Shown here in pieces: positions 50,675-53,975 of a DNA stretch of 64,000 nucleotides (position 1 is its first letter; every line of letters begins with the position of its first letter). The DNA is taken from the NCBI GenBank assembly GCA_963555825.3, contig CAUVXB020000002.1:1440001-1504000 (forward strand), written 5' to 3'. Below the pieces are notes generated by a model. The model did no database searches. It was given only the letters and a program-made list of their open reading frames with translations, and had not been told where the DNA came from. This DNA is from Alphaproteobacteria bacterium. GTDB lineage: Bacteria; Pseudomonadota; Alphaproteobacteria; JAAXGF01. A program made the position numbers and the translations under genes.

Positions 50675-52278
50675 ATGAGTTTTTTAACCGCTAGGCGCGC
50701 CGCGCCGGCGCTCGGCGTGCTGCTCGCGGTGCTGCTCGTCGTCGTCGCGCCGCATGCCGTCGCCGCTCAAGGCCAGGCGCGCATCGCCCTGGTCATCGGC
50801 AATTCGGGCTACGCCAACGCCCCGCTCGCCAACCCGGCGAACGACGCGCGGCTGATGTCGGCGACGCTGCGCCGCCTCGGCTTCGACGTCATCGAGCGCA
50901 TCGACGCCGACCAGAAGGAAATGAAGGTCGCCATCTTCGAGCTCGGCGATCGGCTCGAGCAGGCCGGCAAGGACGCGGTCGGCCTGTTCTTCTACGCCGG
51001 CCATGGCGTCCAGGTCGACGGCGAGAACTACCTGATCCCTCTGAAATCGGAAATCTCGAAGGAGCGCCACGTCGCCATCGAGGCGGTCGGCACGAGTTGG
51101 GTGCTGGGCCAGATGGAGTTCGCCGGCAATCGCATGAACTTCGTCATCCTCGACGCCTGTCGCAACAACCCGCTGACACGCAGTTTCCGCTCGGCGGTGC
51201 GCGGGCTGGCGCGCATGGACGCGCCGAGCGGCAGCCTGGTCGCATATTCCACCGGACCGGGCAAAGTGGCGCGCGACGGCGAGGGCGCGAACAGCGAGTT
51301 CACCGCGGCGCTGGCGCGCGAGCTGACGGTGCCCGGCGTGCCGGTCGAGCAGGTCTTCAAGCGGGTGCGCCGTTCGGTGATGGCGGCAACCAACGATGAA
51401 CAGGTGCCCGGGGAATCGTCGTCGCTGACCGGCGACTTCTACTTCAACGGCACGCCGTCGGGCGAGGGCCAGGTCGCCATCGCGCCGCCGCCGCCGGCCT
51501 CGGCGATCGCCGCGTCGAAGGTGGCGGCCGAAGTCGCCTTCTGGCAGTCGATCGAGGGCAGCCGGGACCCGGCCGACTTCAGGGCCTATATGGAGAAATA
51601 CGGTGAGAGCGGCACCTTCACGGTGCTCGCGCGCAACCGCGTCCGGTCGCTCGGCGACTCGTCGTCGACGCGTTCGACGACGCAGAACGAAGGCGGCATG
51701 TCGGACGCGCAGCTCGCCGCCGAGACCCTGGTCAACGCAAAGCAGATGCTGCTCGAGCTGACCGAAAACGCCGGCGCGGTGATGGGCTCGAAGGACGTGC
51801 CGATGATCGAGCGGCTCGCCAAGTTCCGCGGCATGCTCGGCCATGTCGTCGATTTCGAGCCGATGGCCCGCTTCGTGCTCGGCCGCCAATACGAGCGCGC
51901 GACGGCGGCGCAATGGGACAACTTCTTCCTGCTCTACCAGGAACTGTTCCTGACCGGCTATTCGTTCTCCAAGGCGAAATCCTGGGCCGGCAAATACGAC
52001 ATCAAGGAGATCCGGCCCTACGGCAAGGACCGCTGATCACGGTCGAGTTCATCGACGAGACCGGCGAGTCGCTGACCGTCGGCATCCGCATCCGGCGCAA
52101 GGTCGAGAGCTTCTTCGGCTTCAAGATCATCGACGCCATGACCAAGGGCATCAGCCTCTTGGTGACCCAGAAGGAAGAGTTCGCGCCGTTCCTGGCAAAG
52201 GGCGGCATCGACCGCCTGATCGAGGCGCTCGAGGACCGCGTCGGCAAGATCGCCAAGCCGATCGAGATCCCGGGCTAG
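50675..52278 (+). CDS. Exported caspase-like (C14) peptidase fused to an MlaC/Ttg2D-like domain; frameshift near 52030
   Basis: ALVIGNSGY, YAGHG, ILDACR; C-terminal VDFEPMARFVLG...KIIDAMTKGISLLVTQKEEF continues in another frame. Confidence 0.75.
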
Positions 52279-52998
52279 CGGCGCGGCTGCCCGGCCGCAT
52301 TTGACGCGAGGACACGCCATGGACCAGACGCTGCTGAGTGAGCTCGGCGACGAGACCGAGGGGCTGCGCGAAAGCGGGCTCTATAAGGACGAGCGCGTCA
52401 TCGCGACGCCGCAGGGCGCGGCGATCACGGTCGCGGACGGACCCGAGCTCAACTTCTTCTTCGGCTTCAACGCGCTGGATCGTACGGCTTCGGTTTGTCG
52501 TCGGTCGACGCCATGACCAAGGACGCAGCCTCAGCCTCTTGGTGACCCATCGAATGGAAGAGTTCGCGCCGTTCCTGGCATCAAGGACGCGGCTGATGGC
52601 CAAGCGACCGCCTGATCGAGGCGCTGTCGAGGACCGCGTCGGCAAGATCGCCAAGCCGATCGAGATCCCGGGCTAGCGGCGCGGCTGCCCGGCCGCATTT
52701 GACGCGAGGACACGCCATGGACCAGACGCTGCTGAGTGAGCTCGGCGACGAGACCGAGGGGCTGCGCGAAAGCGGGAAAGCAAGCGTCACCAGCTGCTGC
52801 TCTATAAGGACGAGCGCGTCATCGCGACGCCGCAGGGCGCGGCGATCACGGTCGCGGACGGACCCGAGGTGCTCAACTTCTGCGCCAACAACTACCTCGG
52901 GCTCGCGAACCACCCGGCGCTGGTCGCCGCCGCCAAGGACGCGCTGGATGCATTCCCCGATGGGAACGCTTGTTGGCAGGTTGGATGTGTGACTGCAT
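52231..52998. other. Scrambled approx. 400-bp tandem duplication containing IS110 fragments (probable consensus artefact)
   Basis: 52231-52379 repeated at about 52629-52776; reverse-complement IS110 pieces at 52519, 52775 and 52951. Confidence 0.75.
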
Positions 52999-53975
52999 AC
53001 GGCTTCGGTTTGTCGTCGGTGCGTTTCATCTGCGGCACGCAGACCTTCCACAAGGAGTTGGAGGCGCGGCTCAGCCGCTTCCTCGGCACCGAGGACACGA
53101 TCCTCTATGGGTCCTGCTTCGACGCCAACACCGGGCTGTTCGAGACCATCCTGGACGAGCGCGACGCGGTGATCTCGGACGCGCTCAACCACGCCAGCGT
53201 GATCGACGGCATCCGGCTGTGCAAGGCGCGCCGGCTGCGCTACGCCAACAACGACATGGCCGATCTCGAGGCCAGGCTAGTCGAGGCGCGGGACTGCCGC
53301 CACCGGCTTATCGCCACCGACGGGGTGTTCTCGATGGACGGCATCGTCGCCAACCTGGCGGCGATCTGCGACCTCGCCGAGCGCTACGATGCGCTGGTCA
53401 TGGTCGACGATTCGCACGCCGTCGGCTTCATGGGCGCGGGCGGCCGCGGCACGCCCGAGCACTGCGGCGTTGCCGAGCGCGTCGATCTGGTCACCGGCAC
53501 GCTCGGCAAGGCGCTGGGCGGCGCCTCGGGCGGCTACACCTCGGGGCGCCGCGAGATCATCGCCTGGCTGCGCCAGCGCTCGCGGCCCTATCTGTTCTCG
53601 AACACGCTGGCGCCGGTCATCGCGGCGACCTCGATAACCGTGCTCGACATGCTCGAGGGGAGCGCCGAGCTGCGCGAGCGACTGCACGAAAACGCGGCCT
53701 ATTTCCGCGCCGGCCTGGCCGAGGCCGGCTTCACGCTGGTGCCCGGCGAGCATCCGATCGTGCCGGTCATGCTGGGCGACGCCAAGCTGGCCACCGAGAT
53801 GGCCGCGCGTCTTTTGGACGAAGGCATTTACGTCATCGGCTTCTCGTTCCCGGTGGTGCCCAAGGGCGCCGCGCGCATCCGCACCCAGCTCTCGGCGGCG
53901 CACACCCGCGAGCATCTCGACCGCGCCATCGCCGCCTTCGCCACGGTCGGCTGCGAGCTCGGCGTGATTGGTTGA
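52717..53975 (+). CDS. kbl: 2-amino-3-ketobutyrate CoA ligase; 5' part corrupted by inserts
   Basis: [40 protein letters not shown]. Confidence 0.9.

Follow-up and report, generated by a model that had tools for sequence, protein, structure and literature searches.

A scrambled stretch in the kbl gene: an assembly error that probably blends reads with and without an IS1111-type element

The kbl locus and the IS1111-type element

The window, that is, the whole 64,000-nt stretch of DNA analyzed, contains kbl, which encodes glycine C-acetyltransferase (52319–53975, plus strand; NF005394, 608.9 bits against a cutoff of 460), followed by tdh (54052–55077; NF003808, 592 bits). Upstream, a 1-nt assembly deletion at 52030 (plus strand), behind which an A is added in all four public runs described below, splits a caspase-domain/MlaC-domain gene (50483–52278) into two frames, with the MlaC profile divided between the ORFs.

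A full copy of an IS1111-type element lies at 60065–61532 (minus strand), nested in an IS21-family transposase gene; its own transposase gene (60324–61457) scored 204.4 bits against NF033542 (cutoff 140). A second copy at 63420–64000 (minus strand) is cut by the window end. It corresponds to genome copy C2:1503420–1504943, occupies a different site, and is flanked by GTCTCCTT on the window side and by GTGA beyond the window end. The initial annotation implied two copies of the element, which holds for the window only: the genome has 13 near-full copies. The far end of the full window copy (about 60065–60170) is blended with empty-site sequence, and this copy falls 56 nt short of the 1524 bp of other copies.

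The transposase matched PF01548 (DEDD_Tnp_IS110, the N-terminal domain; 38.7 bits, cutoff 29) and PF02371 (Transposase_20, the C-terminal domain; 60.9 bits, cutoff 21.3), which places it in the IS110 family. According to Siddiquee et al. (2024, PMC11187229), IS1111-type insertion sequences are guided by a transposase-binding seekRNA that is made from the non-coding region and on which transposition depends, and a criterion of the type is that the longer non-coding region follows the transposase gene. Our element resembles IS1111 types in its DEDD-type IS110-family transposase and its long downstream non-coding region: intact copies have ~75 nt before the ATG and ~315 nt after the stop codon, and the window copy has 259 nt after the transposase stop, plus the 56 nt that are missing. 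The subterminal inverted repeats are likewise present and short, with the 8-bp TATGAGGC located 7 nt from one end, or 4 nt if the ambiguous AAG is taken into account, and GCCTCATA located 1–4 nt from the other. Insertion is strictly site-specific and in one orientation, with no evident target duplication beyond the ambiguous AAG; one flank carries GTCTCCTT and the opposite flank GTG(G/A) or ATGG. The conserved target in five distinct flank contexts is GTCTCCTT joined to GTG(G/A), and the empty site, GGTCTCCTTGTGGCCCC, is present in 69 copies of the IS21-family element. As in IS1111 types, short stretches of the non-coding region match the target in both halves and on both strands, and this region is a putative source of a seekRNA. 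A point of difference is that the preferred target here lies inside an IS21-family transposase gene.

A putative guide loop occupies 60214–60241 (minus strand) within the 3′ non-coding region. Read along the element strand, it is GTCTCCTTGG...CCACAAG, and its matches to the left and right target halves fall on opposite strands; we infer this assignment from inspection of the sequence against the derived target. An Rfam search of the intact non-coding region (63300–64000) returned no family at E ≤ 1.

Bridge-RNA recombinases of the IS621/IS110 group are RNA-guided DEDD enzymes that recognize target and donor separately, and in that group the non-coding RNA precedes the transposase gene. In contrast, the non-coding region of our element lies downstream of the transposase gene, and we therefore place the element with the IS1111 type.

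Composition of the scrambled stretch

The initial annotation listed three exact reverse-complement pieces of the element within kbl, in element order, and all three were confirmed. On the minus strand, 52519–52533 corresponds to 61501–61515 of the IS copy (IS_rc 18–32 on the reverse-complemented element, at its left, transposase-proximal end), 52775–52800 to 60701–60726 (IS_rc 807–832, within the transposase gene), and 52951–52998 to 60243–60290 (IS_rc 1243–1290, in the non-coding region and adjoining the putative guide loop). A fourth, previously unlisted piece at 52593–52605 (minus strand, IS_rc 223–235) is colinear with them. The pieces run in element order from IS_rc 18 to 1290 with an even compression of 0.2–0.37 window nt per IS nt, and none of the scramble's IS pieces matched the element in forward orientation. 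The 48-nt match of the last piece stood as listed; the truly extra stretch in it is 45 nt, about 3 nt being also native to kbl.

The 48-mer matched the element with an E-value of 1.8e-17 (BLAST), and neither it nor the 26-mer can be a chance match. Since single 14–15-mers shared with the IS are frequent across this GC-rich genome (genome-wide 14-mer census), the 15-mer alone proves nothing; chance 14–15-mers were too many for use alone, and the census was replaced by a colinear-chain control. The 15-mer and the 13-mer form a colinear chain of 28 nt; among 1000 random genome segments of 806 nt, 2 scored as high, and the 15-mer is significant only jointly with the 13-mer.

The assembly contains 466 nt of extra sequence, made up of a 421-nt scrambled part (52448–52868; its placement is ambiguous by 70 nt and is equivalent to 52378–52798) and a 45-nt IS-derived part on the minus strand (52949–52993). 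Three sources are finely interleaved in this extra sequence, namely kbl continuing, the upstream sequence restarting from 52112, and colinear pieces of the 1524-bp element, which alternate in blocks of 7–25 nt while each keeps its own order. A two-path model, in which kbl with IS_rc inserted after 53051 is combined with clean sequence restarting at 52112, covers 665 of the 683 nt of 52378–53060 in exact blocks of at least 7 nt. The corresponding controls gave 587 nt with the forward IS and a maximum of 611 nt (mean 598) with 60 random 1524-nt inserts. Tiling blocks of 7–9 nt at 52585–52632, as distinct from the 13-mer at 52593–52605, are probably due to chance. A simpler model, in which the left flank is followed by right flank overwriting the IS start, and left flank overwriting the IS end is followed by the right flank, with a break at 52457, was discarded, as the 45-nt IS piece is found on the right-hand side of 52457.

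Comparison with public runs and relatives

We aligned contigs of four public runs from four studies (X15, X16, X1, and X5) to 51500–54000; the assembly's source run is perhaps absent from them, and contigs lose rare variants. Contigs of X15, X1, and X5 (three of the four runs) joined 52377 directly to 52799, skipping 421 nt with 70 nt shared by both sides, and contigs of X15, X16, and X5 (again three of four) joined 52948 to 52994, skipping 45 nt with 3 nt shared. The 421-nt mosaic part was followed by none of the contigs aligned from the four runs. Position 53053 was crossed without a break in X15, X16, and X5, and the depth of the clean contig there equaled that of the flanks in these runs (X15: 95 versus 87–99), indicating that any IS-bearing fraction there is small. 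Outside the scramble, the long listed contig pieces of X15, X16, and X1 showed no substitutions relative to the assembly. Sampled words of 50500–55500 were present at no more than 0.90 in each of 20 runs, and the shortfall approximates the size of the scramble.

Among 20 other genomes, 12 gave some match, and three usable kbl alignments from other genera were obtained (75–85% identity); none of the relatives used belongs to the same genus, and they are informative on inserts in kbl and silent on IS occupancy. The 45-nt insert was absent from kbl of all three, and the 23-nt insert (the 52775–52800 piece) was absent from both relatives spanning it.

Several observations on the alignments are given no weight by themselves. 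Coverage gaps at 52508–52759 (all four runs) and 52340–52843 (X16) were set aside in favor of joining contigs, and low-depth joints such as 51975 to 52105 and 52900 to 53016 (X15 and X16), with sides of 20–36 letters at a likeness threshold of 90, may come from other organisms. A unitig break at 52105–52134 in X15 and X16 coincides with the start of the restart (52112).

The scrambled stretch is an assembly error and not real DNA: it is absent from independent data, and internally it is a blend of alternative states. Since contigs join straight across it, uniform read support for the scramble, the result that would have spoken against a blend, is ruled out. With the 421 and 45 nt taken out, the contig-supported sequence translates into an intact glycine C-acetyltransferase of 396 aa. 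The gene kbl is neither a pseudogene nor tandemly duplicated, and its annotation needs the 466 nt removed and the deletion at 52030 mended.

Two read classes had been predicted at kbl. Contigs of the four public runs showed the clean class and not the IS-bearing one: none joined kbl to an IS end among the 24 loose ends listed, with 104 others lying outside that list. Contigs matching the IS at 52951–52998 extended into IS sequence in both directions. The exact 54-nt kbl stretch 52998–53051 gave no match in metagenome_contigs and none in genome_contigs, from which records of the own genome are perhaps excluded.

The target-like site and the origin of the scramble

The last IS piece stops ~50 nt (53) before a target-like site, with 234 nt of IS remaining (ratio 0.23). 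This site, CCACAAGGAG at 53048–53057, is the reverse complement of CTCCTTGTGG (minus strand), and neither the window nor the public contigs show a break in it. The initial annotation placed a 10/14 target match here in inverted orientation; position and orientation stood, and the count becomes 10 of the 12 conserved target bases, with the leading GT absent. A count over 6.04 Mb gave 73 occurrences of CTCCTTGTGG: 69 in empty IS21-family sites and four elsewhere, including the one in kbl, where its strand is the one predicted from the inverted IS pieces. The GT missing from kbl is common to the left side of all five occupied site contexts, so that an insertion here would be an off-target event. 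The insertion point would lie between 53051 and 53054, between CCAC and AAGGAG, in inverted orientation. The site had also been taken as independent support for the guide; this support is circumstantial, the site being near-cognate with its left half mismatched at two bases.

Similar scars mark three or more further IS junctions of the genome. Two are at true target sites. At C2:3336850–3337900, compressed flank is followed by pieces of IS_rc 74–407, a restart of that flank, from 316 nt before the site, and pieces of IS_rc 1300–1361, with the intact cognate site 39 nt after the IS pieces (163 nt of IS remaining, ratio 0.24). At C2:1618050–1619680, IS_rc 1–1253 is followed by flank running through an intact site. 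The full window copy, blended with empty-site sequence, is the third. These three scars lie in an IS with 78 copies, in which reads from empty copies can cross-map; they therefore prove the type of artefact and not heterogeneity. Self-BLAST flagged duplications at C2:3336982/3337556 and C2:1618133/1619490; genuine local repeats are very many genome-wide, and a count of scrambled duplications is uninformative.

Wick et al. (2023, PMC9980784) describe balanced heterogeneity as a source of misassembly and polishing mistakes, with an invertible switch and a prophage as examples and separation of read classes as the remedy. As at those loci, two structural states appear to be mixed in kbl into a garbled, change-dense local consensus. 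Unlike those examples, the variable piece here would be a 1.5-kb IS, and the scar consists of a flank restart, compressed colinear IS pieces, and an intact target.

We consider it probable that 52378–52998 is a consensus or polishing artefact that blends IS-bearing and IS-free reads of kbl. The real sequence is intact kbl, to which the long-read-style assembly adds 466 nt. Reads carrying the 1524-bp IS1111-type (IS110-family, RNA-guided) element, inverted at the near-cognate site at about 53051–53054, would have been merged base by base with IS-free reads. Such a merge, whose polishing mechanism is our conjecture, would leave a compressed first pass of kbl, a flank restart from 52112, and at least four short colinear IS pieces running into the uninterrupted target site. 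The assembly contains other consensus errors, among them the deletion at 52030.

The artefact might also have arisen with no true insertion in kbl, through a chimeric read, a graph mis-join via the repeated IS, or misplaced IS reads, and we regard this as unlikely. It would fit the flank-like depth over 53053, the contigs of the four public runs, in which no IS–kbl junction was seen, and a genome very rich in repeats (78 copies of the IS21 family, 13 of the IS1111 type, and numerous tandem repeats), and the other three scars are explicable by cross-mapping among IS21 copies. However, kbl is single-copy, which excludes a paralogue as the source of cross-mapped reads in the blend, and the 10 nt that it shares with the IS flanks are too little to draw long reads. 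Moreover, the pieces run in order across the whole element, and a chimera would not orient them correctly with their extrapolated end at one of the four non-IS21 target 10-mers, a coincidence with an estimated chance of ~1e-4 to 1e-3, or ~0.01 if up to two mismatches are allowed.

It is highly improbable that the strain carries the scramble as real DNA, left by an IS insertion that decayed alongside a local duplication and missing in other strains. The public runs could represent other isolates, but X15, X16, and X1 lack the scramble while their long listed pieces carry no substitutions outside it, none of the 20 runs exceeded 0.90 of the words, and like scars stand at other IS junctions. No recombination or transposition mechanism yields three sources interleaved in such an order in 7–25-nt blocks, and IS1111 types add no bases on insertion (PMC11187229). 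Chance matches in a GC-rich genome can practically be dismissed: single IS 14–15-mers are indeed frequent genome-wide, but the exact 48-mer and 26-mer, the rarity of the colinear chain among controls, and the lack of the pieces in orthologues and public contigs oppose this explanation.

Of the blend first proposed, the merging of kbl and IS sequence at the level of bases is supported. Because no IS–kbl junction was seen in contigs, the polymorphic insertion is something that we infer, as is the existence of IS-bearing kbl molecules in the sequenced sample. Such molecules would mean that the element is currently mobile. The mobility within the population that had been suggested keeps this conditional standing, and contigs of the four public runs show clean kbl across 53053. 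We give even odds to the element transposing at present in the population and having landed in kbl, a single-copy metabolic gene, whose near-cognate site would carry its two mismatches at the distal end of the left guide match.

As a single unproven event, the kbl insertion carries small weight. If the reading is true, scars of this kind, with a flank restart, compressed colinear IS pieces, and an intact target, could be mined for polymorphic or off-target RNA-guided insertions without reads. If the inference holds, the kbl scar would be an indirect sign of an active seekRNA-type IS that tolerates two outer mismatches in one guide half, and a natural off-target data point for a class of recombinases already in use for genome engineering.

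Composition of the garbled stretch in kbl

The initial annotation had reported three exact reverse-complement pieces of an IS110 element within a garbled stretch of kbl. The element is 1524 bp long and of the IS1111 type (IS110 family), and the pieces were confirmed at 52519-52533, 52775-52800 and 52951-52998, corresponding to positions 18-32, 807-832 and 1243-1290 of an intact reverse-complemented copy (IS_rc), and a fourth reverse-complement piece was added at 52593-52605 (IS_rc 223-235). The IS_rc positions show that the four pieces are colinear on one strand; no forward-orientation match to the element was found among the pieces. 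The element is compressed steadily, to 0.2-0.37 window nt per element nt, and by arithmetic the last piece ends 53 nt short of the candidate insertion site with 234 nt of the element left (ratio 0.23). The genome is rich in single 14-15-mer matches to the element; a chance origin of the pieces is practically negligible, since the 48-mer at 52951-52998 has a BLAST E value of 1.8e-17 and the two short pieces alone form a 28-nt colinear chain whose score was reached by 2 of 1000 random genome segments.

In the reading of 52040-53060, a caspase-domain/MlaC-domain gene comes to its 3' end and kbl begins (52040-52447) before the garbled segment, after which the upstream sequence is repeated (52229-52378 as 52627-52776, 100%; 52378-52447 as 52799-52868). 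We modelled 52378-53060 as two interleaved ordered paths in exact blocks of at least 7 nt: path (a) follows clean kbl to 53051 and then the reverse-complemented element, and path (b) restarts the clean sequence at 52112 and runs through to 53060. The model accounts for 665 of 683 nt, compared with 587 nt in a control with the element forward and a maximum of 611 nt (mean 598) with 60 random 1524-nt genome segments as the insert. The blocks begin with kbl 52872-52881, restart 52112-52124, kbl 52940-53020 in two blocks, restart 52131-52147 and IS 22-32, continue with further restart blocks interspersed with IS pieces, and end in a long clean restart that is broken by IS 809-832 and IS 1246-1290 before it continues past the uninterrupted site. 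A series of 10-25-nt blocks drawn from three sources, with each source keeping its own order, is the pattern expected from a column-wise consensus of misaligned read classes and not from recombination.

The element, its target and its putative guide

The genome (two contigs, C1 and C2; 6.04 Mb) contains 13 near-full copies of the element, whose ends were set by comparing the flanking sequences from five distinct contexts with the empty site. Occupied sites read GTCTCCTT on one side of the 1524-bp element and GTG(G/A) on the other (ATGG in one copy), and the empty target site is GGTCTCCTTGTGGCCCC. This site sits within an IS21-family transposase gene (fragment 61521-62432, NF033546 at 266 bits), with 69 empty and 8-9 occupied copies genome-wide. 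Thus, in this very IS-rich 6-Mb genome, one IS is the specific target of another and is disrupted by it. At 59411-62432, the IS1111-type element is nested between the rve part and the Mu-transposase-C part of the IS21-family transposase gene.

The transposase matches PF01548, PF02371 and NF033542 ("IS110 family RNA-guided transposase"), and the element has a long non-coding region downstream of the transposase gene and subterminal inverted repeats of 8 bp. PMC11187229 describes seekRNA-guided, target-specific IS1111-type elements, with which our element shares the downstream non-coding region and the subterminal inverted repeats. On the element strand, GTCTCCTTGG in the non-coding region is followed, after a 12-nt spacer, by CCACAAG (60214-60241 and 63615-63650). 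GTCTCCTTGG matches the left target half exactly and CCACAAG is complementary to the right half; by sequence comparison, this putative guide region matches both target halves as described for seekRNAs. The non-coding region matched no Rfam family. The far, non-coding end of the window copy (60065-60170) is scrambled, 56 nt shorter than 11 other aligned copies and interleaved with empty-site sequence, which makes the assembled putative RNA region of that copy unreliable. No new kind of system is present here.

The genome contains 73 occurrences of CTCCTTGTGG, 69 at IS21-family empty sites and four elsewhere. One of these four lies in kbl at 53048-53057, and its minus-strand orientation is the one required by the inverted pieces. 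Within 51500-54000, it is the only minus-strand site of the two with at most two mismatches to the target 12-mer; 627 such sites exist genome-wide. The leading GT common to all occupied contexts is missing from the kbl site, so an insertion there would be a near-cognate event.

Clean kbl in independent sequence data

The 5-kb stretch around kbl (50500-55500) was found in 20 public runs, with at most 0.90 of its sampled words in every run. Near-identical sequence (0.74-0.90 of words) came from runs labelled sponge metagenome and runs of three organisms, in five studies; sediment metagenomes contained 0.24-0.34 of the words. Logan contigs of X1, X5, X15 and X16, four runs that each come from a different study, were aligned on 51500-54000. 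The joint 52377->52799, which skips 421 nt and is ambiguous by 70 nt in its placement, was present in three of the four runs (X15, X1 and X5), and none of the X16 contigs was listed there. The joint 52948->52994, which skips 45 nt, was likewise present in three of four (X15, X16 and X5); in X1, a 99-nt contig stops at it. Position 53053 is crossed unbroken at flank depth by X15 record 10, X16 record 17 and X5 record 22, and the long pieces listed for X15, X16 and X1 are otherwise free of base differences over the stretch. Because these contigs join straight across the scramble, it is very improbable that the scramble is real DNA. The X15 and X16 contigs break at the 30-mer 52105-52134, where the restarted copy begins (52112), and a low-depth contig nearby joins 51975 to 52105, which could reflect either noise or a minor variant.

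Without both skipped stretches, the kbl reading frame is open over 396 aa; the C-terminal 368 aa, as in the window, match glycine C-acetyltransferase (608.9 bits), and an L-threonine 3-dehydrogenase gene follows. The 45-nt insert is absent from kbl of three relatives (other genera, 75-85% identity), and a 23-nt insert from both relatives whose sequence extends to it. The contig joints, the restored frame and the relatives indicate that clean kbl is the dominant sequence and probably the only stable one. Contigs of all four runs also insert an A behind 52030 that is missing from the assembly; the two-ORF split of the caspase-domain (Peptidase_C14) and MlaC-domain gene (50483-52278) is therefore an assembly error.

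Comparable scars and the origin of the kbl scar

At C2:3336850-3337900, the IS21-family flank is increasingly deleted towards the site and followed by IS_rc 74-407 in seven pieces; the same flank then restarts 316 nt ahead of the site, is followed by IS_rc 1300-1316 and 1338-1361, and resumes through the intact cognate site 39 nt on, with 163 nt of the element left (ratio 0.24). At C2:1618050-1619680, element 1-1253 with small deletions gives way to 103 nt of flank running through the intact site, which produces a 90-nt direct duplication. These two scars and that of the window copy show that the kbl scar has the same build as those at demonstrated insertion sites. Isolated element ends at C1:1251402-1251631 (IS_rc 1295-1445 and 1502-1524) and C2:1770005-1770129 (125 nt, ~93% identity) may represent genuine solo remnants or additional scars. 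At more than 10 loci (e.g. C1:235246-239976 and C2:2331984-2336710), there are tandem arrays with a ~1181-bp period and 99.9-100% identity; these may be another small mobile element in tandem copies, or duplications introduced by the assembly.

The three control scars prove the type of artefact, not heterogeneity, as the 69 empty IS21-family copies could supply cross-mapped reads. Cross-mapping does not explain the scar in kbl, which is single-copy in the genome, and an artefact without a true element insertion is rather unlikely. PMC9980784 describes polishing errors driven by heterogeneity. The initial annotation proposed that molecules carrying the element at the matching kbl site and molecules lacking it were blended in the consensus. 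We infer this as the best explanation, and a likely one; the public contigs show clean kbl only, and no kbl-IS junction was seen in the contigs of the four runs, where rare variants cannot show.

The practical result is a corrected annotation, with kbl intact and the upstream gene free of a frameshift. Furthermore, the kbl scar provides a pattern by which IS heterogeneity may be recognised in consensus sequences.
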